From contig JACCXV010000125.1 of the NCBI GenBank assembly GCA_013696835.1, positions 1 to 30,019 on the forward strand: a stretch of DNA of 30,019 nt. The letters are read 5' to 3'. The position numbers and the translations under genes were made by a program. The number at the start of each line of letters is the position of its first letter. Positions within the stretch are counted from its first letter, which is position 1. The DNA comes from Gemmatimonadota bacterium. GTDB taxonomy: Bacteria; Gemmatimonadota; Gemmatimonadetes; JACCXV01. Positions 1 to 25,920 of the stretch are shown one piece after another. The notes under the pieces were generated by a model, which did no database searches, was not told where the DNA came from, and saw nothing but the letters and a program-made list of their open reading frames with translations.

Positions 1-2736
1 GTGCCGATGAACGGCCCGCTCGACGTGGACTTCACGGTCGCGAGCCGCGACCCGGGGGATCTCTACCCCCAGGGCGGTCCGATGCCGGCGCGGCGGTTCG
101 CAGCGCGCGGGACGGTCACCGGGCCGCGCACCGCGATGGACGTGCGGCTGGCCGTCGAGGCGGAGGGCCTCACCGCGCGGGGCCGGGCCGTGCAGCGCCT
201 CGACGCCACGGCCGCCCTCACCGATCTCGGCCTCCCGTCCTCACGCATGGTGCTGGACGGCACCGCGGCCGGCATCGCCGCGACGGATTCCCTCGTGCTG
301 GACTCGGCCGAGTTCCACGTCGGCTTCGCGGCGGACACCGCGGGCATCTCCGTGGGGGTCCAGGTGGACTCGGTGAGCCGTGCCGACGCGCACGTGGCCG
401 TGCGCCTGGGTGGCGCGGCGCCAACCGTCGTCCTGGACCGCGCGGCGCTCACCCGCAGGGACGCGACCTGGGAACTGCAGCAGCCCGGGAGGCTGACCTA
501 TCGAGGCGGGGAGATCCGCTTCGAGGACTTCGCGCTCGCCCACGAGGAGCAGCGACTCGCGCTCGACGGCACCCTCGACCTCGCCGGAAGGCAGGACCTG
601 CGGTTCGCGCTCGAGAACCTGTCGCTCGAGGACCTGCAGGCGCTCGCGGGAGTGGAGCCGAGCGCCAGCGGGACGCTGAACGGGTCCGTCGCGCTCGCCG
701 GCACGGACCGCGCGCCCACGTTGAGAGGGGAGCTCTCGCTTGCGACCGCGCGGGCCGGAGGCCTGAGCATCCGGCGCCTGGACGCTCGGTTCGACTACGC
801 GAACCGCCGCCTCGGCCTCGACGCGCAGCTCGTGCCGGAGCCCGCGCCGGCGGCTTCCTCGGCCGGGGACGACGATCCCGGCGCGCTGGTGCTGCGCGGC
901 TCGGTGCCGCTCGACCTGGCGTTCCGGGACGCCAGCCAGCGCTTTCCCGACGCGCCCCTGGACCTGCACGTGGAGAGTCGCGGTCTGCGGCTGGACAGCT
1001 TCCGGCCCGCCCCTCCAGGCGGCGCGGCCGCCCCGCCCGCCAGTCAGTCTGCCGACGGTGCTGACACCGCCGCGCGCCCGGGCGCCACGGGGCCGCTGGC
1101 GTTCCGGCTCGACCTCACCGGAACCCCCTCGGCCCCGTTGCTCGAGAGCACCTTCTCGCTCGAGGGGTCGCGTATCAACAGCCTCGACGTGGAGCGCCTG
1201 AGCGGCCGCTTCGGATACGCCCAGCGCGAGCTGAAGCTGGAAGCGGAGCTGGTCGCGAGGATGCCCGCGGCGGCAGCGAAGCCTGCGATGGACGAGGCTG
1301 CGAACGAGGAGGCGGGCACGGCCCCGCTCCAGCGGAGCGCGGAGGGGGAGCGTGCCACGCTGGCGGCGCGAGGGAGCTTCCCCGTCGATCTGGCGCTCGG
1401 CCCGGTGGCTGACCGCACCCCCGACCTCCCGATGGACGTGCGGCTCGAGAGCCGCGGCCTGACCCTCGGGATCGCGCGCTCATTCTCGCCGCGGGTGACC
1501 GAAGCCTCGGGTCCCGTAGAGGTGGGCGTGAGCCTGAGCGGCACTCCGTCGGAGCCGCGCTACTCGGGCGCTCTCACGGTGCGCGACGGGGCTTTCCGCA
1601 TGGGCCGCGACGCGGTGCGCTACTCCGACATCGAGGCCACGGTGCGCTTCGACAACGACCGCATCACCCTCGAGGAGATCCAGGTCTCGTCTCCGGGGGG
1701 CCGGGCGCGCGTGACAGGAGGGATCGCGTTGCGCGAGATGGCGCTAGGCGACATCGACGCGCGCCTCGAGGCACGGCGCTTCACGCTGATCGGCGAAGAG
1801 GACCGGCAGCTGGTGATCGATGCCGACCTGGACCTCAGCGGGACCACACAGGCGCCTTCCGTCGTCGGAAGCGTGAACGTGGAGCAGCTCGAGTGGCCTC
1901 TGCCCGAGCGCAGCGACAAGGAGGTCATCGACGTGGACGAGGCGATCCTCTACGTACGCGCGGAGGGCGACACCGCTCCGCAGCCGCCCCCGCCTCCGGA
2001 CGTCTGGCGCGAGACCCTGCTGGACGTCGACGTGACCATCGAGGACGACGCGTTCCTGCGCAGCCCGCAGGCGCTGATCGTCCTCGAGGGCGACCTCTCG
2101 ATCGCCAAGGAGCGCGGGGCCGACCGGCCCTCGCTGGCCGGCAACATCGACGTCGTGCGCGGCTTCTACTCCGACTTCGGCCGCCGCTTCGAGGTCGCCG
2201 AGGGGCAGGTGGCGTTCTTCGGCACGCCGGACCTGGACCCGGGACTGAACGTGCGGGCTGTGACGGAGGTCGAGAACTCCGACACGGGCCAGGACGTTGA
2301 GATCTCGCTGATCCTGGGCGGGACGGTTGGACAGCTCACGTTCGACGTGGCCTCGAACCCGCCCTACGAGAAGTCCGAGATCTTCTCGCTGCTGCTCTTC
2401 GGCACGACCACGCCAGGGCAGGGGCAGGAGACCGAGTTCCAGAGCACGATCTCGCGCGTGGCGGCGGGGCAGGCGACGGGCTCGCTCTCCCGCGCGCTCG
2501 CCTCGGAGCTGGGGCTGGACCTGCTTGAGATCCAGCCGGGCGCCGGTGGCGGTGCCGGGTTCCGCGCCGGCAAGTACGTCGCGAACGACGTGTTCGTGAC
2601 CTACTCGCAGTCCTCCGCCCCGGAGCAAGAGAACCAGCTCGGCGTCCAGTACCGCCTGTCCCGCCAGTGGACGCTCGAGACGGAGGTGGCACGGCGCCAG
2701 TTCGGGGCCGACCTGTTCTACGAGTTCCAGTATTGA
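1..2736 (+). CDS. tamB: Translocation and assembly module TamB / AsmA-like protein, 5'-truncated by the window edge (paralog 1)
   Basis: Open frame from base 1 to TGA 2734-2736. Long amphipathic beta-strand-rich repeats; DUF490-like C-terminus (L.GT...P...G.V, 'GKY...DVFVTYSQ', 'GVQYRLSRQWTLE') ending in ADLFYEFQY, similar to the aromatic-ended TamB terminus. Confidence 0.85.
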   Translation: MPMNGPLDVDFTVASRDPGDLYPQGGPMPARRFAARGTVTGPRTAMDVRLAVEAEGLTARGRAVQRLDATAALTDLGLPSSRMVLDGTAAGIAATDSLVLDSAEFHVGFAADTAGISVGVQVDSVSRADAHVAVRLGGAAPTVVLDRAALTRRDATWELQQPGRLTYRGGEIRFEDFALAHEEQRLALDGTLDLAGRQDLRFALENLSLEDLQALAGVEPSASGTLNGSVALAGTDRAPTLRGELSLATARAGGLSIRRLDARFDYANRRLGLDAQLVPEPAPAASSAGDDDPGALVLRGSVPLDLAFRDASQRFPDAPLDLHVESRGLRLDSFRPAPPGGAAAPPASQSADGADTAARPGATGPLAFRLDLTGTPSAPLLESTFSLEGSRINSLDVERLSGRFGYAQRELKLEAELVARMPAAAAKPAMDEAANEEAGTAPLQRSAEGERATLAARGSFPVDLALGPVADRTPDLPMDVRLESRGLTLGIARSFSPRVTEASGPVEVGVSLSGTPSEPRYSGALTVRDGAFRMGRDAVRYSDIEATVRFDNDRITLEEIQVSSPGGRARVTGGIALREMALGDIDARLEARRFTLIGEEDRQLVIDADLDLSGTTQAPSVVGSVNVEQLEWPLPERSDKEVIDVDEAILYVRAEGDTAPQPPPPPDVWRETLLDVDVTIEDDAFLRSPQALIVLEGDLSIAKERGADRPSLAGNIDVVRGFYSDFGRRFEVAEGQVAFFGTPDLDPGLNVRAVTEVENSDTGQDVEISLILGGTVGQLTFDVASNPPYEKSEIFSLLLFGTTTPGQGQETEFQSTISRVAAGQATGSLSRALASELGLDLLEIQPGAGGGAGFRAGKYVANDVFVTYSQSSAPEQENQLGVQYRLSRQWTLETEVARRQFGADLFYEFQY

Positions 2737-5700
2737 GTCACGGCACGGCTCCCGGAGACACCGCGCCTCCGTCGGTCGCGCCGCCGACGCCGGCCGGTGG
2801 TGGCGAGGGGGCGGCAGGTCCCCGACGCCGCTCCGGCACGCGCCGAGCCGTGCGGGGTGTGGGGTGGATCCTGATCTGCCTCGTCGGCCTCGTGGCCCTG
2901 GCCGCTCTCGTGGCGGGATTGCTGCTGCGCACGGACTGGGTGCACGAGCGCGTCCGGCTGTTCGCGCTGGAGCGGCTCCGGGCGGCGGTGCAGGGGGAGG
3001 TCGACGTCGCCCGCATCGGCGGAGACCTCCTGCGGGGCATTCGCCTCGAGGGGGTCGCGATCCGCGGCAGGAACGGGGAGCCCTTCCTGAACGTGGAGCG
3101 GCTCGAGGTGGACTACACCGCCGGCGGCTTCCTGGGGCAGAGGATCCTGCTGGGCGACGTCGTCCTGGTGCGGCCGCGCATCACGCTCGTGCAGGACTCT
3201 CTCGGCCAGTGGAACTACCTGCGCATCCTGCCCTTCCTGCGGGGCAGCGAGAAGCCGCGCGACCCCGGCGGCTGGGGCTCCGTGGTGCGGGTCGAGCGGC
3301 TGCGCATCGTGGACGGCGCGCTCGCGGTCACGACCGAGCGCGAGGCGCGCACGTTCGGCCCGCTCGGCGCGGGCCCGGAGCTCACCGGACTCAACGGCAG
3401 CATCCATCTCGACATCTCGCCGGCCAGCGACGGGGACCGGAAGCGCTTCGCGGCCGAGGACCTCGCGTTCGAGCTCCGTGAGCCGTCGCTCTCGGTGCGC
3501 GAGCTGGACGCCCGTGCCGCCTTCACCCCCCGCGGCCTCGCCGTGGACCGGTTTCTCCTGCGCACGGGCGCCAGCGAGGTGGCGGGACGGGGAAGCGTCC
3601 GCAACCTGGCTCGGCCGGTCTTCGACCTGGGGCTGGACGTGACCCCGCTCTCGCTGGCGGAACTGCGGCGCTTCGTCCCTGGGGTTCCCTTCGAAGGCAC
3701 GGTTCGAGGTTCGCTCGGCCTGGTCGGCCCCCTGGCGGATCCCGAGCTGTCGCTGGAGAACGTGGTCCTGCGCACGCCCGGGTCCGTCATCACGGTGCGC
3801 GGGCGCGTGACCACCGAGAAGGGCCCCGTCATCGACGCCAGGATCGCCCTCGAGCCACTCGCTCCGGCCGACGTGCGCGTGCTCTGGGGAGGGTGGCCGC
3901 TGAACGAGCCGGTGCGGGGGAATCTCCAGGTGCGCGGCTCGCTCGACCGAATGGTGGTCGACGGTCCCCTGACATTCGGAGAGACGGTGAGCCAGGTCTC
4001 CGGGAGCCTGGGCCTGGCCGGGCCCGAGCCGAGCTACGACATGCGAATCGCCGCCCGGGGCCTGGACCTCCAGGACATCCTGCACGAGGAGGCCTGGAGC
4101 AGCGTGGTGAACGGTGAGTTCCGCATCTCCGGCCGCGGCCTGGGGACTTCGGCGCGCGCCGCCTTTGGAGGGACGCTGCGCGACACGCGGGTGCTCTTCT
4201 ACGACTTCAGGTCCGGGGCCTTCTCCGGCCGCTTCCGGCCCGGCGCATTCGAGGTGGACAGCTTCACGGTTGCGCTGCCGCAGAGCCGCATCTGGGGCTC
4301 CGGGATCCTGCCCTACGACTACTCGCTGGCCCTCGATCTGCGGGCCGTGAGCCGCAACCTGCAGGACTTCTACCCCGGCGTGGGGCCGATGCCCGCGGCG
4401 CGCTTCGAGGGCCGCGGCAAGCTCGCCGGGCCGTTCTCCGGCATCGACCTCGAGATGACCGCGAGCGCCGAGTCGCTGGCCTGGAACGGCCTCGTCGCGA
4501 GCCGCTTCGAGGGCACGGGCGCCTTTCTCCATCTCGGGCGGCCGGAGTTCCGGATGGCGATCGACGGAACCGGCTCGGACGTGGATTACCTCGGTCCGAT
4601 CCGCTTCGGCACCGCCGAGTTCCACGCCGGCTTCGAAGGCGACACGATGGGCGTGACGGTCGCGGTGCAGATGGACTCGCTGCGCAGCGGAGATGGGCAC
4701 CTGGACATCGACTTCGCGGGCGAGGCTCCCCGCGTCGTGCTCGACCGCGGCACGCTCCAGGTCGACGGCCGCCCCTTCGCGGTCCAGGAGCCCTCGGGAT
4801 TCGCGTACCAGGCTGGCGAGTTCCGCTTCGACGACTTCGCTCTGGCGAACGACCGGCAGCGGATCGCACTCGACGGCACGCTTCGCGTGGACGGCGTCCA
4901 GGACTTCGGCTTCACGCTGCAGAACGTCGCGCTCGAGACGCTCCAGGCCTTCGGCGGGGCGCGGCCGGTGGCGGAGGGGATCTTCAACGGGTCCGGCAGG
5001 GTGACGGGCACCGACCTGGAGCCCGTGATCCAGGGCGCGTTCGACCTCTCCGAGGGCCGGCTGGCGGGTCTGGAGGTCCACCGCCTCGAGGGACGGGTGG
5101 ACTACGCCGGGCGCTCGCTGGGCCTCGACGTGCGCCTGCAGCCGGAGACCCTCGGCGCGGACAGCCTCGGAGACCACGGCTCCATCGCCCTGCGCGGCCG
5201 CCTTCCGGTGGACCTGGCCTTCGGGAGCGTCCCCCCGCGTTTCCCCGACGCCCCGATGGACCTACGGATGGAGAGCGAAGGGTTGAGCCTGGCACTCGTG
5301 CAGGCCTTCAATCCACGGCTGCGCACGGCGTCGGGCCCCCTGCGCTTCGACCTGCGGCTCGCGGGGCGGCCGTCCGCCCCCACCCTGGAAGGCCGCTTCG
5401 AGCTGCAGGAGGGACGCATCGGCAGCCTCGCCATCCACGAGGCGCAGGGGACGATCGGGTACGAGGACCGCGAGATCGAGCTCGACCTGACGCTCGCGCC
5501 CGAGACCGAGTCCGCGGACCGGGAGGAGGACCCCGGGTCGCTTGCCGTGCGCGGGACCTTCCCCGTGGATCTCGCGCTCACGGGCGTCGAGCGGCGCATC
5601 CCGGACCGTCCCATGGACCTCCGCCTGGAGAGCCGGGATCTGAGCCTGGAGCTGCTCGAGTCCTTCTTCCCGCGGATCACGGCCGCCGCCGGGCCGGTGG

Positions 5701-14562: not shown

Positions 14563-15228
14563 TTGTCCATCCTGGACATCATCGGCCCGGAGATGGTCGG
14601 GCCTTCCAGCTCCCATACCGCCGGCGCGCTGCGTCTGGCGCGCGTGGCGCGCAGCCTCGTCGGTGGCACGCCTGAGCGCGCCCGCGTCGGCCTGCACGGC
14701 TCCTTCGGGAAGACCTACAAGGGGCACGGCACCGACCGCGCCGTTGCGGCGGGCCTGCTGGGCTTCGAGCCCGACGACCCGCGCATCGTCGCCGCGCTGC
14801 ACCTCGCCGGCAAGGAAGGGCTCGAGCTCCACTTCGAGGAAGCGAACCTCGGGGAGAAGATGCACCCGAACACCCTGCGGATCGTCGCCGAGCGGAGCGG
14901 CGAAGAGGCCGAGCTACTGGGGTCCTCCGTCGGCGGCGGCTTCATCGAGGTGTCCCGGATCGACGGCTACCCGGTGCTGCTGCACGGCGAATACCACACG
15001 CTGATGGTCGTCGCAGACGACATCCCCGGGACCGTGGCGGCCGTGACGCAGCTCTTCGCCGAACGGTCGGTGAACCTGGCCTACATGGAGGTGCGGCGAA
15101 AGCGGAAGGGAGAGCGGGCACTGATGATTCTGCAGTTCGATCAGCCGCTCGATGCGACGGCCCTGGCCGAGATCCGCGCCTTCCCCTGGCTGCACAGCGC
15201 GAGACCGATCCCCAAGCTGGTCCAGTAG
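14563..15228 (+). CDS. sdaAB: L-serine dehydratase, iron-sulfur-dependent, beta subunit with C-terminal ACT-like domain
   Basis: TTG start; DIIGP.MVGPSSSHTAG, LHGSFGKTYKGHGTD, HPNT, G.SVGGG motifs; C-terminal D.PG.VA.VT ACT-like region. Confidence 0.92.
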   Translation: MSILDIIGPEMVGPSSSHTAGALRLARVARSLVGGTPERARVGLHGSFGKTYKGHGTDRAVAAGLLGFEPDDPRIVAALHLAGKEGLELHFEEANLGEKMHPNTLRIVAERSGEEAELLGSSVGGGFIEVSRIDGYPVLLHGEYHTLMVVADDIPGTVAAVTQLFAERSVNLAYMEVRRKRKGERALMILQFDQPLDATALAEIRAFPWLHSARPIPKLVQ

Positions 15229-15352: not shown

Positions 15353-16261
15353 ATGTTCGGATCGATGGCTGAAATGGTCCAGCGCGCACGGGACGCGGGA
15401 ACGAGCTGCTGGCGCGTGGTCCTCGACGAGGACCTTTCCCAGATCACCCTCGGCGAGGACGAGGTCCTCGGCACCCTCCGCTCGCGGCTTGCCACGATGC
15501 GCGAGGCGGTGGCCCTTGGCCTGGAGGGGAAGACGACCTCGCTCTCGGGGCTCTCGGGAGGGGGAGCGCACCGCTTCCGCGACTGGAGCCGCGGCGCAGG
15601 CGGCGGCGGGGAAGGCGGCGAACGTGGGCCGCTGTCCGGACCCTTCTGCGCGCCCATGATCGCACGCGCGCTCGCCACTATGGAGATCAACGCCGCGATG
15701 GGGCGCATCGTCGCGTCGCCGACCGCCGGGAGCGCGGGCATCCTGCCGGCCATCTTCCTCACGCTGGAGGAGGTGCGGGGCATCGACGAGGAGACCCTGC
15801 TGCGCGGTCTGATCACCGCCGGCGGCATCGGGGGCGTGTTCCGCGCGCGGGCGAGCCTCTCCGGTGCCGAAGGCGGGTGTCAGGCGGAGACCGGCTCCGC
15901 GGCCGCCATGGCAGCCGGGGCCGTCGTCGAGATGCTCGGCGGCGCGCCCGCGATGGTGTCCGAGGCCGTCTCGTTCACGATCCAGGGCATGCTGGGTCTG
16001 ATCTGCGACCCGCTGGGAGGGCTCGTCGAGATCCCCTGCATCACGCGCAACGTGAGCGCGGCCATGCAGGCCGTCGCGGCTGCCGATATGGCGCTGGCCG
16101 GCCTCACCTTCCCCATCCCGGCCGACGAGGTGCTGGACGTGATGGGCGAGATCGGGCGCGAGCTGCCGGAGCGGTATCGGGAGACGGGGCTCGGGGGCCT
16201 GGCCGCGACTCCCACGGGGCAGCTCCTCAAGATCCAGGTCATGGGAGGGGAGCTCGCATGA
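15353..16261 (+). CDS. sdaAA: L-serine dehydratase, iron-sulfur-dependent, alpha subunit
   Basis: GGAG at 15341-15344, then ATG 15353. Motifs IVASPTAGSAGILP, SLSGAEGGCQAE, GLICDPLGGLVEIPC..RN, YRETGLGGLA; three Fe-S cysteines. Confidence 0.92.
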   Translation: MFGSMAEMVQRARDAGTSCWRVVLDEDLSQITLGEDEVLGTLRSRLATMREAVALGLEGKTTSLSGLSGGGAHRFRDWSRGAGGGGEGGERGPLSGPFCAPMIARALATMEINAAMGRIVASPTAGSAGILPAIFLTLEEVRGIDEETLLRGLITAGGIGGVFRARASLSGAEGGCQAETGSAAAMAAGAVVEMLGGAPAMVSEAVSFTIQGMLGLICDPLGGLVEIPCITRNVSAAMQAVAAADMALAGLTFPIPADEVLDVMGEIGRELPERYRETGLGGLAATPTGQLLKIQVMGGELA

Positions 16262-16317
16262 CCGGCGCTCCGGCCCCATGACCGGCGCTCCGGCCCCATG
16301 ACCGGCGCCCCCGCTCC
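16258..16317 (+). repeat. 20-bp tandem repeat x3 (two identical units plus one 17/20 unit), each starting ATGA; creates two 7-codon mini-ORFs (16258-16281, 16278-16301)
   Basis: ATGACCGGCGCTCCGGCCCC at 16258 and 16278; ATGACCGGCGCCCCCGCTCC at 16298. Confidence 0.95.
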
Positions 16318-17476
16318 CTGCCCGGAGGCGAGGCCTGCCGTGGAGCCGCGCTCGGAAGCCCGCGAGCTGGTCCTCCGCAGCTGCGAAGAGCCGAGACGGC
16401 GGATGCTCATCCTCGCGGACGGCCGCTTCAGCGTCCTCGACGCCAAGACCGCCACCTGCGTGATCCGCTATCGCGGGGAGGAGGTGGTCGCCGTCCTCGA
16501 CCGGCAGACGGCGGGCCGCACGGCCGGGGAGGTGGTCGGCGTGGGTGGCTCGATCCCGGTGGTCGGCACGCTCGACGAGGGACTCGCGCTAGCTCCCGAC
16601 ATGCTTCTCGTCGGCGTGGCACCGCGTGGCGGGCGGCTGCCGGAGGCGTGGCGGGAGATGATCCTGGGAGCGCTGGCGCGCGGGCTCGAGGTGGTGAGCG
16701 GCCTCCACACGTTCATCGGCGACGACGCGGAGCTGGCCCAGGCGGCCGCTGCGGGAGGCGGCACGATCCGCGATCTGCGGCGCGTTCCCGACGACCTGCC
16801 GGTTGCGTCGGGACTGGCCGCGGATGTGGGCGCGACGGTGGTGCTCACGGTTGGCAGCGACTGCAACGTGGGGAAGATGACCGCCGCGATGGAGGTCGTG
16901 CTGGCGGCGCGCAGACGGGGGCGCCGGGCGGCGTTCGCGCCCACCGGCCAGACGGGGCTGCTGCTCGGCGGCTGGGGCCTCGCCGTGGATCGCGTGATCG
17001 CCGACTTCGTCGCTGGCGCCGCCGAGCGCATCGTCCTGCGCAACGCGCCGGGGGCGGAGCTGGTGGTGGTCGAGGGCCAGGGCTCCATCTTCCATCCGGG
17101 CTATTCGGGCGTGACCCTGGGACTGCTGCACGGTTCGATGCCCGACGCGCTGATCCTCGTCCATCAGCCCACGCGCGAGCGCTCGCTGAACGACGGCGTG
17201 CCGATCCCCCGCCTGCCCGAGCTCGTGCGGGCGTACGAGGCGCTCGCCGCACCGCTCAAGCCCGCCCGCGTCGTCGCGATCGCGATCAACGGCTACGACC
17301 TGGCTGACGCCGCGGCCCGGGACTGGGCGCGGCGGGCCGAGGACGAGACCGGGCTACCCGCCGTCGATCCCGTGCGCTTCGGGGCAGAGGCCCTGCTCGA
17401 GCCCCTCGTGGCTCTGCGCAAGGGGACTCCCACGTGGACTCCTTTCGCTCCCGGCCACAACGGCGGGCAGCCGTGA
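16298..17476 (+). CDS. DUF1611 family protein (DgcN-like, putative D-amino acid N-acetyltransferase)
   Basis: MLILADG, KTA..VIRY, VGVAPRGG.LP..W, VVSGLH, P-loop-like GSDCNVGKMT, TGQTG, VEGQGS, GYSGVTLGLLHGSMPD. Adjacent to an enolase-family epimerase, as is usual for this family. Confidence 0.85.
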   Translation: MTGAPAPCPEARPAVEPRSEARELVLRSCEEPRRRMLILADGRFSVLDAKTATCVIRYRGEEVVAVLDRQTAGRTAGEVVGVGGSIPVVGTLDEGLALAPDMLLVGVAPRGGRLPEAWREMILGALARGLEVVSGLHTFIGDDAELAQAAAAGGGTIRDLRRVPDDLPVASGLAADVGATVVLTVGSDCNVGKMTAAMEVVLAARRRGRRAAFAPTGQTGLLLGGWGLAVDRVIADFVAGAAERIVLRNAPGAELVVVEGQGSIFHPGYSGVTLGLLHGSMPDALILVHQPTRERSLNDGVPIPRLPELVRAYEALAAPLKPARVVAIAINGYDLADAAARDWARRAEDETGLPAVDPVRFGAEALLEPLVALRKGTPTWTPFAPGHNGGQP

Positions 17477-17513
17477 GTCGGGGCGCACCCGCCGGGGCGC
17501 AGGCGGTGAAACC

Positions 17514-18599
17514 ATGAAGCTGCGCGTGGTCCCCTTCCGGATCCATCCCCGCCATGCCTTCACGATCGCCCGTTCGAGCCACACGTGGTACGACAACGTG
17601 CGCGTCGAGGTGGAGGAGGAGGGGATCACCGGCTTCGGCGAGGCCGCGCCATCCGCCTTCTACGGTGAGACGCAGGGGACGGTGCTCGCGGCGCTGGAGG
17701 CCCTGCGCCCCGCCATCGAGGAGGGACACCCTGACGAGGTGCGCGCGCTGGAGGGGGCGCTCGAGCGGCGCCTCGGGGGCAACGGCGCCGCTCGCTCCGC
17801 GGTCTCCGCCGCCTGCCACGACTGGCGCGGGAAGCGCTACGGAGCCCCCCTCCACCGCCTGCTCGGGGCGGGGATCGCGACCATTCCTCCCACGTCGTTC
17901 ACGATCGCCATCGCCGCCCCCGCCGAGATGGCGGCGCGCGTAGCGGAGGCCGGGGAGTTCCGCCGGCTCAAGGTGAAGATGGGCTTCGAGGGTGACGAGG
18001 AGGCGATCCGGCGCATCGCCCAGGTGTCGGACGTCCCGTTGCGCGTCGATGCGAACGCCGGCTGGACGCGAAGCTCCGCCCTGCGGAAGCTGGACCTGCT
18101 GGAGGAGCTCGGGGTCGAGCTCGTCGAGCAGCCTCTGCCCGCGGCTGACCTGGAGGGCCTCGCCGCGCTGCGCGACGCCTCGAGCATCCCCGTCATCGCC
18201 GACGAGTCCTGCGTCACCGCCCGTGACCTGGCCCGCCTCGCGGGCGTGGTGGACGGCGTCAACGTGAAGCTCGCCAAGGCCGGATCGATCGGGGAGGCGC
18301 TGCGGATCATCGAGGGAGCGCGCGCTCTCGGCATGCTCGTCATGCTGGGATGCATGATCGAGTCCACGCTGGGAATCTCCGCGGCGGCGCATCTCTCGCC
18401 GCTGGTGGATTACGTGGACCTGGACGGGCACCTGCTTATCGGCGACGATCCGTTCACTGGCTTGCGCCTGGTGGACGGCTGCGTGCTGCCGTCGGGGGAG
18501 CCGGGCCTCGGCGTTCGTCCCGCGGACAGCCGCGAAGACGGCGGCGGCGGCGAGGATATCCATGTCGAGGAAGCCGGAAAGGAGCGAGGCAGACCATGA
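17514..18599 (+). CDS. Dipeptide epimerase / racemase, enolase superfamily (L-Ala-D/L-Glu epimerase- or DgcA-like)
   Basis: G.GEAAP, KVK catalytic motif, metal ligands in VDANAGW / VEQP / IADES, VNVKLAKAG, GCMIES, terminal DLDG motif. Confidence 0.88.
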   Translation: MKLRVVPFRIHPRHAFTIARSSHTWYDNVRVEVEEEGITGFGEAAPSAFYGETQGTVLAALEALRPAIEEGHPDEVRALEGALERRLGGNGAARSAVSAACHDWRGKRYGAPLHRLLGAGIATIPPTSFTIAIAAPAEMAARVAEAGEFRRLKVKMGFEGDEEAIRRIAQVSDVPLRVDANAGWTRSSALRKLDLLEELGVELVEQPLPAADLEGLAALRDASSIPVIADESCVTARDLARLAGVVDGVNVKLAKAGSIGEALRIIEGARALGMLVMLGCMIESTLGISAAAHLSPLVDYVDLDGHLLIGDDPFTGLRLVDGCVLPSGEPGLGVRPADSREDGGGGEDIHVEEAGKERGRP

Positions 18600-20773
18600 A
18601 GCTCGACGTCGGGGCGCGGAGGATGTCTTCCCGCGTGACGGGGATGCTGCTGGCGGCGGCGCTCGCGTGCGCCGGGGATCCGCCCGTGGGACCGGGGAAT
18701 TCCGCGGGCCCGCTGGCACCAGGGTCAATCGCCGGCCGAGTGCGTGACGCCGGGGGAGCTGCGCTCGCGGGGGTTCGCGTGACGGCCGGCACGCCATCCC
18801 CAGTGGCATCCGCCGTGACCGACCGCGAGGGCCGCTTCACGCTCGGCGACCTGCAGCCCGGCGCGTACGTGGTGGCCGCCGTGGCCGACGGCTACGGCCC
18901 GGTCTCCTCGTCGGTGGTCGTGACGGCGGGCTCCGCCTCGGCGGTGGACCTCGCCCTCGCGTCCCTGACGGACGAGCCTGGTCCGCAGGCCGGCTCCGTG
19001 GCGGGCCGGGTACTCCGCGCCGACGGTGCACTCGTGGGTGGAGGCATCGAGGTGCGGGTTCGCGCGGCTGCGGAGGGGTGCGACGCCGAAGCTGGTATCG
19101 CGACAGGCGCGACGGATGCGCTCGGACGCTGGGGGGCGCGAGGGCTTCCGCCCGGTGATTACGTGGCCTGCGCCCGGGCGTCGGTGGGCGGGAGGTCCTT
19201 CTCCGGCAGCTCGGCGTTCACCCTCGGGGCAGGCTCCTCGGTGGAGGCGGACGTCCTGTTGCGGCAGCAGGTCTCTGCGCCGTCCGCGCTCGAAGGAGGC
19301 GGGGCCGGTGTGGTCGCGCTGGGCGACGTCTTCCCCTACACGTTCACGATCGTGAGCGACGGCGAGGGCGGTTCGCACGAGGTCATCGTGACCGACACCC
19401 TGCCGCTCCTAGACGACCCGGCGGGACCGCCGGGTCCGCGGGACCGCGACGGCAACCAGGCGTTCCGCTACGTCACCGACAAGCCGACCTTCGATCCCGT
19501 CGCGATCCGCTACTACGTGGACGAGCGGGACGACGAGGGCGGGACGGCCACCGATCTCTGCTTTCAGGGCCCAGGGCCCTCTCTCCCCGCGCCGTTCGTG
19601 CGGCCCGCCTCCACGGCGCTGTGCGGCGCATTCCGGGAGTTCGCCACGATCGCCGAGGCTCGGACCGCCGCGGAGACGGCTTCCAGAGACGGCGATCAGA
19701 TCGTGGCCGTCGAGTACTACATCGAGGAGATCCTGGCCCGGACGCCCACGGGCGGAGACGTGGAGGCTGAGGATTCCTTCGAGGTGATCGTCGAGGCCAT
19801 TCACTCCGTCAACGAGTTCCGGCTGGATAACGGCGCGGTCCCCGCGATTGCGGACGAGAACGGCTGCTGGTGCAACCTCGTCACGGCGATCTCGGCGGAG
19901 AACGACTTTGTGGCGAAGGGTGACTGCACGCGTGTCGTCGAGGCCGTGCTGGAAGTGCGGAAGACGCTGGCCGACGCCGTCGTTCCGGCCGGCAGCCAGG
20001 CGGAGTTCCTGGTGGAGCTCGGCAACGTGGGCTCCGCGCCGCTCGGCGAGGTGACGGTGAACGACACGCTCGACCCCTCCTTCTCGAGTCCGCTCACGGG
20101 CGATCCCGGACTCGTCATGGAGGAAGGGCTCTGCGCCGGTTGCACGATCGGCTTCAGCACCGACTCGAGCGTGGTCACGATCACGATCCCCTCGGTTCCC
20201 TCAACCGATGCGGATGGCGACGGCATCCTGGATGACGACGAGGGCTTCCGGGTGGCGAACCTGGTTACCCGCACGCCCCTGCGGGCGGGGACGTTCTGCA
20301 ACCGGGTTACGGCGCGGGATGAGGCGGGCCGCACGGACTCGGACCTGGCATGCGCCGTGACACGCTCCGAGGTCGAGCTCGACGTGGTCAACGAGGACGG
20401 CCTGCTCGGCGCCGGAGGGTTCGAGGACATGGAGACGTTTCGCGTGGGGGACTCGGTGGCCTATCGGACGCTGATCACCAACCGTTCGAGCGTCGCGGCG
20501 ACCGGCCTGACCGTCCTCTGGGAGATCGCCCCCGGATCGCGGATCCTGGGCTTCGCGACGAAGTTGCTTGCCGATCCGGCGGGGATCGCGTGCTCGACCG
20601 CCAGCGACACGTGCTCGCTTGAGCTTCCGGAGCTGGGCCCGGGAGCCTCTGTCGCGCTGGACTACCTGACGGTGGCGAATGGCGTCGGATCCGACGTCAA
20701 TCGCATACGGCTCTTGGCGGCCGAACTCGGCCTTCCGCTGGTGAACGAGGAGCCGACCACGGTTACGCCCTAG
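18596..20773 (+). CDS. Predicted lipoprotein (725 aa): two carboxypeptidase-regulatory-like beta-sandwich domains plus three DUF11-like domains (short paralog)
   Basis: AAGGAG at 18579-18584; ATG overlaps the epimerase stop (ATGA). Lipobox ALA-C; GSIAGRVRD..GAAL.G..V and GRFTLGDLQPG.Y motifs; DUF11-like segments (FPYTFTI...VTDTLP; LEVRKT...NVG...V.V.DTL; GD.VAY...ITN). Confidence 0.8.
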   Translation: MKLDVGARRMSSRVTGMLLAAALACAGDPPVGPGNSAGPLAPGSIAGRVRDAGGAALAGVRVTAGTPSPVASAVTDREGRFTLGDLQPGAYVVAAVADGYGPVSSSVVVTAGSASAVDLALASLTDEPGPQAGSVAGRVLRADGALVGGGIEVRVRAAAEGCDAEAGIATGATDALGRWGARGLPPGDYVACARASVGGRSFSGSSAFTLGAGSSVEADVLLRQQVSAPSALEGGGAGVVALGDVFPYTFTIVSDGEGGSHEVIVTDTLPLLDDPAGPPGPRDRDGNQAFRYVTDKPTFDPVAIRYYVDERDDEGGTATDLCFQGPGPSLPAPFVRPASTALCGAFREFATIAEARTAAETASRDGDQIVAVEYYIEEILARTPTGGDVEAEDSFEVIVEAIHSVNEFRLDNGAVPAIADENGCWCNLVTAISAENDFVAKGDCTRVVEAVLEVRKTLADAVVPAGSQAEFLVELGNVGSAPLGEVTVNDTLDPSFSSPLTGDPGLVMEEGLCAGCTIGFSTDSSVVTITIPSVPSTDADGDGILDDDEGFRVANLVTRTPLRAGTFCNRVTARDEAGRTDSDLACAVTRSEVELDVVNEDGLLGAGGFEDMETFRVGDSVAYRTLITNRSSVAATGLTVLWEIAPGSRILGFATKLLADPAGIACSTASDTCSLELPELGPGASVALDYLTVANGVGSDVNRIRLLAAELGLPLVNEEPTTVTP

Positions 20774-24660: not shown

Positions 24661-25920
24661 ATGAAAAGGATTGCAGTAGCACTGACCCTGGCGGGCATGC
24701 TCTTGGGCATCCCCGTCCTGGGTCATGGCCAGACGCGTGACCGCAGCTTCGAGATCACGCCGTTCGGCGGATACACGATCTGGGACGACGACGTCGTCTT
24801 CCTGGAGGCAGGGCCGAACTTCGGCGGCAACCTCGCCTGGTTCCCCACCCGGAACCTCGGGATCGAGGGCACCATCGGGTTCAGCCCCGGGAACAGCGTC
24901 GACGAGGAGCAGCTCGCGAATGCCGGCGTCGACGCGACCGATTTCGTCGACAACGAGGTGGACGTCTGGGACGTGCACGTGAACGGCGTCTACCAGCTCT
25001 CCTTCAACCCCGAGCAGAAGGTCGTGCCGTACGTCTCCGCGGGCGTGGGTCAGCTCGTGTTCGACCAGGACACGCAGGCAGACACCTCACCGTCCGACGA
25101 CGATGACGACGAGCTCGAGGACCTGAACGAGCCGCAGTTCGCGATGAACGTGGGCGGCGGCCTCAAGATCTTCTTCGGGGAGTCGATCGCGCTTCGCCTC
25201 GACGCGCGCAACGTGATCGCGCAGGTCGAGCGCGGCTTCACGCGCAATGAGCTGCCCCCGGGAAACAACACGAAGACCTTCATGGCGGACAACGTCTATC
25301 TCACTGGCGGCCTGACCTTCACGCTGGGCGGCTCGGCCGAGGAGGAGACGCGGGACTCCGATCGTGACGGCGTGCTCGACAAGGACGACCTCTGTCCGAA
25401 CACGCCGGCCGGCGTCATCGTGGACGAGACCGGCTGTCCGGTCGACTCCGACGGCGACGGCGTGCCCGACGGCATCGACGCCTGCCCGAACACCCCGAGC
25501 GGAGCCACCGTGGACGAGCGCGGCTGCCCGACGGACTCGGACAACGACGGCGTGCCCGACGGTCAGGACCAGTGCCCGAACACGCCCGCCGGAACGCAGG
25601 TGGACGAGAAGGGCTGCCCCATGGAGGAGCCGGAGCCGGAGCGCACCGACTGCCTGGGCAGCCAGTCCTTCTACACGAACAACGAGGCGATCAACGTCGA
25701 GGGCAAGAACTGGCTGCAGTTCGGCGACGTCCAGACCGCCAACACCGCCGATGTCGAGCAGATCGGCGACTACCAGGGCGTGGCGGTGTTCGCCAAGAAG
25801 GGCGCACGCCGGCCGCTCCGCGAGATCTGGCTGCCTCTCTGCGACGGCGAGGGCCGCTTCCAGCCCTTCCGCCTCGAGAGCGAGGTCCGCGGCACCCTGG
25901 GAACGCTGAAGGCTCGGTAG
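24661..25920 (+). CDS. OmpA-like outer-membrane beta-barrel protein with three thrombospondin type-3 repeats and an atypical C-terminal domain
   Basis: GGAGGT at 24647-24652; signal peptide ending GHG-Q. Barrel strands FEITPFGGY, GIEGTIGF, PYVSAGVG, NVGGGLKIFF, ALRLDAR, YLTGGLTF; three D.D.DGV.D..D.CP.TP.G..VD..GCP units. Confidence 0.85.
   Translation: MKRIAVALTLAGMLLGIPVLGHGQTRDRSFEITPFGGYTIWDDDVVFLEAGPNFGGNLAWFPTRNLGIEGTIGFSPGNSVDEEQLANAGVDATDFVDNEVDVWDVHVNGVYQLSFNPEQKVVPYVSAGVGQLVFDQDTQADTSPSDDDDDELEDLNEPQFAMNVGGGLKIFFGESIALRLDARNVIAQVERGFTRNELPPGNNTKTFMADNVYLTGGLTFTLGGSAEEETRDSDRDGVLDKDDLCPNTPAGVIVDETGCPVDSDGDGVPDGIDACPNTPSGATVDERGCPTDSDNDGVPDGQDQCPNTPAGTQVDEKGCPMEEPEPERTDCLGSQSFYTNNEAINVEGKNWLQFGDVQTANTADVEQIGDYQGVAVFAKKGARRPLREIWLPLCDGEGRFQPFRLESEVRGTLGTLKAR
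25354..25620 (+). repeat. Three 90-bp coding repeats (TSP3-type Ca-binding units)
   Basis: Units start at 25354, 25444 and 25534: DSDRDGVLDKDDLCP, DSDGDGVPDGIDACP, DSDNDGVPDGQDQCP. Confidence 0.9.

Follow-up and report, generated by a model that had tools for sequence, protein, structure and literature searches.

We analyzed a tandem repeat at the junction between sdaAA and a DUF1611-domain gene in a 30,019-nt stretch of DNA (hereafter the window; contig JACCXV010000125.1) from a metagenome-assembled genome (MAG) of an uncultured soil Gemmatimonadota bacterium. Our combined findings suggest that this repeat is a lineage-specific, slippage-prone tandem duplication of an ancestral, translationally coupled ATGA junction, tolerated because a path for handing ribosomes from one gene to the next persists. 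We assign this reading a probability of roughly 0.7.

Anatomy and ancestry of the ATGA repeat

The array lies at 16257-16308, on the forward strand like the other features of this gene row, and consists of two identical 20-nt units followed by a diverged third, with an ATGA in each (Tandem Repeats Finder: period 20, 2.6 copies, 100% match, score 104). The stop codon of sdaAA (TGA, 16259-16261) shares bases with ATG 16258, which opens a first short open reading frame (mini-ORF 1, 16258-16281, MTGAPAP followed by a stop) in repeat unit 1 (16257-16276). The stop of mini-ORF 1 (TGA, 16279-16281) overlaps ATG 16278, the start of mini-ORF 2 (16278-16301, again MTGAPAP and a stop) in repeat unit 2 (16277-16296), and the stop of mini-ORF 2 (16299-16301) in turn overlaps ATG 16298, from which a 392-aa ORF, the DUF1611 gene, runs to 17476. 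This long ORF has its start in the diverged third unit (16297-16316), in which three third codon positions are changed relative to units 1 and 2. The sdaAA stop is in this way connected to the long ORF through three stop/start overlaps and with all three reading frames used in turn, just as the original prediction had read from the sequence. At each of the three successive ATGA overlaps (16258, 16278, 16298) we find the co-directional NUGA arrangement that marks translational coupling by termination-reinitiation (TeRe) at 4-nt overlaps.

A Shine-Dalgarno (SD)-like motif, GGGAGGGGAGC, is present in the 3' end of sdaAA (16243-16253). It includes GGAGG at 16244-16248, and its cores begin 14 and 9 nt upstream of ATG 16258. 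No SD core precedes ATG 16278, ATG 16298 or ATG 16403, the last being a further in-frame start candidate of the DUF1611 gene. Allowing up to 3 mismatches, the 20-mer was found in its own genome at the array locus and at two unrelated chance sites, with 1 match for the reversed control. The MAG contains only 23 repeats as clean as the array (period of at least 8 nt), 7 of them with a non-triplet period; none of the other non-triplet clean repeats lies on an ATGA junction or forms an ATGA relay. The predicted RNA fold of 16225-16425 was no better than that of shuffled sequences (z = 0.35), which leaves a riboswitch or attenuator hairpin unsupported, and an Rfam search returned chance-level matches only.

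The order of the two genes, sdaAA then DUF1611, is conserved across the bacterial order, and the junction could be read in 30 relatives, the nine closest included. None of the 30 carries the array, which is the outcome of the comparison of unit number in related genomes that had been proposed with the original prediction. Each of the nine closest relatives (74-79% protein identity) has exactly one NTGA overlap (ATGA or GTGA) and, within the end of sdaAA, an SD-like motif rich in G; none has an ATGA-containing tandem unit. Eight of these junctions were read from sequence (G003 (L007), G002 (L040), L036, L037, L038/L039, L041, L042 and L043), whereas for the ninth, P0003, the 4-nt overlap was taken from gene coordinates only and the leader from the protein sequence. 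The DUF1611 leaders of the nine are 6-78 residues long and all are in frame with the conserved RR-ILILAEG strand. The chance of nine of nine junction starts being in frame is (1/3)^9, which identifies the junction start as the true one in this clade. The clade relatives show no conservation of the leader peptide as such. These leaders are hypervariable, GC-rich and of low complexity, with simple repeats of the GGCGC/GCC type, yet in frame with the NTGA overlap. In a sister family the DUF1611 ATG lies 15 nt 5' of the position homologous to 16403 and the gene has an 8-nt overlap with the sdaAA end (ATGGNTGA). The sdaAA protein of the window (...KIQVMGGELA) terminates at the ancestral position, as judged by C-terminal alignment with relatives.

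The 22-nt joint between units was absent from both collections searched by exact-pattern scans, the metagenome contigs of the Joint Genome Institute (JGI; two patterns) and the GTDB species genomes. Clustering at 90% places no near-identical strain with the DUF1611 protein; the cluster's only members are the two annotation versions of the window itself. Judged by these comparisons, the array is lineage-specific.

The relatives show the ancestral state: the DUF1611 start shared bases with the stop of sdaAA, the 3' end of sdaAA contained a G-rich, SD-like motif, and a short, variable leader stood ahead of the conserved RR-ILILAEG strand. The 20 nt from the junction onward would since have been duplicated, so as to stand now in two identical copies before the gene's own diverged copy, with the in-frame ATG displaced by 40 nt from the sdaAA stop. 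In six native gene pairs, TeRe required an overlap or very short spacing, and a distance of about 20 nt nearly abolished coupling (PMC10666635). Removal of the SD lowered reinitiation by 60-90% or abolished it in four of five E. coli gene pairs, the SD being helpful for restart but not always needed (PMC6728339). A displacement of 40 nt would therefore leave DUF1611 uncoupled from sdaAA unless ribosomes are relayed through the two mini-ORFs, and this relay is expected to be leaky because links 2 and 3 have no SD.

We thus propose that ribosomes ending sdaAA restart at ATG 16258 with the help of the SD and may then be handed, less efficiently, via two SD-less restarts to ATG 16298, and/or that DUF1611 translation may be initiated independently at an in-frame GTG (16340) behind its own SD-like motif. 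The duplication of the junction would be tolerated by selection because the termination-reinitiation path to the gene survives, and unit number would shift by slippage (2 versus 3 units were seen, counting the gene's own copy). Relative to a single junction, DUF1611 output is expected to be reduced, unless initiation at GTG 16340 makes up for the loss. An effect on expression, if any, would be a side effect rather than a demonstrated adaptation. Such a relay could act directly on DUF1611 only and not on the epimerase and lipoprotein genes further downstream, because a 37-nt spacer separates DUF1611 from the epimerase gene; the original suggestion that the chain sets the expression of these two genes as well does not follow from the arrangement.

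Start site of the DUF1611 gene

The in-frame start candidates are ATG 16298, GTG 16340 and ATG 16403 (16403-16405), and public records hold both a 392-aa version and a 357-aa version of the protein, the latter starting at 16403. The original prediction was correct that ATG 16298 has no SD, and that GGAGG precedes ATG 16258, but it overlooked GTG 16340, which lies in frame behind the SD-like motif GGAGGCGAGG (16324-16333; the whole element, motif and GTG, spans 16324-16342). Throughout the genome, SD cores show a peak of about 2.5-fold at 9-14 nt before starts, measured from the 5' end of the core. The cores before ATG 16258 are at -14 and -9 and those before GTG 16340 at -16 and -10; by chance, SD cores precede 16% of candidate starts. 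GTG 16340 is thus a candidate start independent of the relay, and DUF1611 may be initiated there without it.

ATG 16403 is unlikely to be the sole start and we rejected it as such. All 114 homologues have at least 3 residues ahead of the hydrophobic strand, and in 113 of the 114 an Arg or Lys directly precedes it. The window encodes R-R-R (AGA CGG CGG) in frame before 16403, and a 35-aa non-conserved leader precedes RRR-MLILADG. Translation from 16403 would leave out the conserved Arg, and none of the homologues begins there. The Met at this position is found in the window alone, the homologues showing I, V, F, Y, H, L or S, and could represent a secondary start, one that came about once the junction had been displaced.

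These observations bear on the alternative that the relay is irrelevant, with DUF1611 made mainly from GTG 16340, whose motif lies 6-16 nt upstream, or from ATG 16403, and with the repeats a harmless insertion in what is now an intergenic spacer. We regard this as possible, if rather unlikely. The motif of GTG 16340 stands at the offsets of the genomic SD-core peak and, if it were coding, would include a rare AGG codon (7.8 per 1000). The coding signal between 16298 and 16402 is weak, with a log-likelihood ratio of +0.03 per codon compared with +0.67 in the domain, and 16403, with its Met unique to the window, is the start in one public annotation. Nonetheless, the same leader frame is the best of the three in both codon log-likelihood and G+C content at third codon positions (0.86, with a genome coding mean of 0.86), the junction start is in frame in all nine clade relatives and hence ancestral, the 16403 start suffers from the loss of the conserved Arg, and the 16% background of SD cores reduces the weight of the motif. 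On the basis of sequence, DUF1611 may be reached either from GTG 16340 or through the relay.

Frame arithmetic, copy number and divergence of the units

To the eye, a chain that passes through three frames and lands on the gene looks designed. In a simulation that added one further copy of the junction with a length of 12-30 nt, copies of length 3n+2 always made the first ATG stop precisely on the next ATGA, copies of length 3n always gave an in-frame N-terminal insertion, and copies of length 3n+1 let the first ATG read into the gene in the wrong frame for about 50 codons and so broke the link. A 20-nt unit belongs to the 3n+2 class, and the mini-ORF relay is formed by construction because reading from each copy's ATG ends at the TGA within the following ATGA. 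The three-frame relay is an automatic by-product of geometry and requires no design. At most, its design-like look reflects a survivorship filter that favors those duplications in which a hand-over path is kept. The same simulation agrees with the earlier claim that gain or loss of units can never frameshift the gene, since every unit brings its own ATGA and the frame is restored at any copy number; in this the array lacks the on/off switching of a contingency locus.

Evidence on copy number comes from assembled contigs of public runs rather than raw reads. A 173-nt contig from run X1, assembled at k=31 and with a depth of about 2.8x, joins 16242-16256 (15 nt) straight to 16277-16434 with zero mismatches, and so has one mini-ORF unit where the window has two. 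No contig of runs X2, X3 or X6 spans the array. Either unit number varies between populations or it was miscounted in one of the assemblies; judging from these contigs, it is probably not fixed.

The units and the N-terminus of the gene mismatch at positions 12, 15, 18, 21 and 24 from the A of ATG, all of them third codon positions. Four of the mismatches are synonymous and the fifth is TGA/TGC, a stop versus Cys. The three synonymous pairs listed originally are all correct; the list was incomplete, as CCA/CCC is a fourth and is followed by the TGA/TGC pair. The probability that all mismatches fall on third positions is 0.018 for three of three in 20 nt and 0.0013 for five of five in 28 nt, both calculated post hoc.

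Several of these findings weigh against the proposed lineage-specific, slippage-prone duplication. The third-position-only pattern suggests that some time has passed since the first duplication and that at least one copy has been under codon-level constraint. No relative with more than 80% identity is available to date the duplication, the nearest being at 74-79%. Moreover, the difference of 2 versus 3 units could be a miscount, given contigs at about 2.8x instead of raw reads. Alternative sources of the divergence pattern can be envisaged. Every change could lie in the gene copy, or a unit could have come from a diverged allele of the true N-terminus through unequal recombination. Run X1 contains an 89%-identical relative of the 3' part of sdaAA (15974-16223; 28 differences in 250 nt, mostly G/C changes at third positions). 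With a near-identical copy of the locus and this relative both present in X1, the contigs indicate that diverged alleles or related populations co-occur in that soil sample.

The array had been interpreted as a copy-number-tunable device, possibly with selection on the peptide. In its full form this would be an evolved rheostat, in which selection keeps a chain of translated mini-ORFs of variable number, each SD-less restart attenuates DUF1611 without a frameshift, and selection also acts on the MTGAPAP peptide or on its being translated. We consider it improbable. Tunability gains something from the independent assembly with one unit fewer, and the chain is unbroken; moreover, without the chain a distance of 40 nt would be too long for direct coupling to survive (PMC10666635). 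Yet an evolved tuner is not supported by an array that is missing from every relative examined and from both collections searched, whose geometry is automatic, whose restarts 2 and 3 have no SD, and which could be bypassed from GTG 16340. The confinement of the unit/gene differences to third positions would be in keeping with a rheostat, but constraint on the gene copy alone, or a diverged allele such as the 89% relative in X1 as the source of the unit, would predict it equally well. The pattern does not demonstrate selection on the mini-ORF peptide, from which ordinary codon-level constraint or diverged-allele recombination is inseparable because either gives the same result; nor is the leader peptide conserved in the clade.

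A broader version would make 3n+2 duplications of ATGA junctions a recurrent, phylum-spanning class of frame-neutral relays, acting as graded, slippage-driven expression dials in which every additional SD-less restart would reduce synthesis of the enzyme downstream and whose mini-ORFs are kept translatable by selection. Such selection would account for the third-position-only divergence. We give this generalization similarly little credence.

Least probable is that the second identical unit, or the entire array, is an artefact of metagenome assembly: the MAG is fragmented (431 contigs), the X1 contig is one unit shorter and contig C376 of the same MAG has a gene apparently split by a perfect 43-nt duplication, but a unit together with the diverged gene copy recurs in the independent k=31 assembly, which requires real 31-mers across the joint, so that the array is not wholly an artefact and at least one mini-ORF is real, and at 52 nt the array is below usual final k-mer and read lengths. 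The duplication on C376 (G000:C376:3555-3641, 2.0 copies) is located where the minus-strand frames 1986-3698 and 3617-5149 overlap, and looks like either a single gene (about 1,050 aa) that a frameshifting duplication has split or an artefact of assembly.

Gene neighborhood, related systems and implications

The MAG amounts to 2.37 Mb, and the closest named relatives of the window are Gemmatimonadota MAGs. The array lies within a co-directional row made up of sdaAB (14563-15228), sdaAA (15353-16261), the DUF1611 gene, an MR/MLE-family epimerase gene and a gene for a CarboxypepD_reg/DUF11 protein. The sdaAA product is the alpha subunit of L-serine dehydratase (TIGR00718 sda_alpha at 283.9 bits, above the cutoff of 243; Pfam SDH_alpha). 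Read from the third ATGA, the DUF1611 gene (16298-17476, 392 aa) encodes a DgcN-like protein with the Pfam domains DUF1611_N and DUF1611, for which DgcN is the top NCBIfam match at 247.8 bits, under the cutoff of 480. The epimerase gene (17514-18599; Pfam MR_MLE) starts 37 nt 3' of the DUF1611 stop and is DgcA-like, DgcA being its top NCBIfam match at 236.1 bits, under the cutoff of 400. The two proteins thus have the Pfam domains (DUF1611 and MR_MLE) of the DgcN/DgcA D-glutamate catabolism pair, with scores below the NCBIfam equivalog cutoffs. The gene for the CarboxypepD_reg/DUF11 repeat protein (18596-20773) begins with an ATG that overlaps the epimerase stop in a single ATGA, with AAGGAG upstream.

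The spacer that divides DUF1611 from the epimerase gene occupies 17477-17513. In one relative (L038), the sdaAA/DUF1611, DUF1611/epimerase and epimerase/next gene junctions are all 4-nt overlaps. Neither a sigma-70-like promoter nor an intrinsic terminator was found between 14300 and 18800, so that an internal promoter in the spacer has no support. Further downstream, a 90-nt tandem repeat (25354-25619; 3.0 copies, 76% identity, Tandem Repeats Finder score 256) lies within a coding region.

Mycobacterial interspersed repetitive units (MIRUs) are interspersed, apparently mobile elements of roughly 50-100 nt found at many mycobacterial loci. MIRUs and MIRU variable-number tandem repeats are the closest published analogue of the array, being short repeats at the start codon within an operon that can occur in tandem with variable number. 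MIRU repeats sit at start codons and contain an ORF coupled at -4 nt, which is thought to minimize the effect of insertion or duplication on the gene downstream (PMC12548453, citing Supply et al. 1997). In that description, as in the array, the ends of the unit's ORF overlap the flanking ORFs with -4 spacing; unlike MIRUs, the array is a 20-nt junction piece at a single locus, not interspersed and with no sign of mobility. A mobile-element origin of the MIRU type was rejected, as the unit is confined to a single locus.

The ancestral state resembles TeRe at 4-nt ATGA/NUGA overlaps (PMC6728339, PMC10666635), as does the first link of the present chain, with the same stop/start overlap and an SD in the 3' end of the upstream gene. 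Unlike those pairs, the array has three overlaps in series through two 7-codon ORFs, the second and third links being SD-less. In M. tuberculosis, upstream ORFs (uORFs) with NUGA overlaps, including overlaps from uORF to uORF, have been proposed to hand on ribosomes (bioRxiv 10.1101/2022.06.01.494293). As in the array, the stops of these short ORFs overlap the next start; in contrast to the array, they do not consist of one unit repeated in tandem, and no copy-number variation is known for them.

Simple-sequence contingency loci, such as the tetranucleotide repeats near alternative starts in the Haemophilus lic genes, switch by frameshifting. The array shares with them a slippage-prone repeat at a translation start that could alter expression with unit number, but because its units restore the frame, any such effect could only be graded.

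As a single instance in one fragmented MAG, the array is a curiosity rather than a demonstrated mechanism. For annotation, it explains why public start calls disagree (392 versus 357 aa) and argues for the upstream start. If ribosomes are truly passed on along the chain, tightly coupled operons would be able to take up inserted sequence at a start codon and yet stay coupled, and simple repeats would have a route, free of frameshifts, by which to grade expression rather than switch it.

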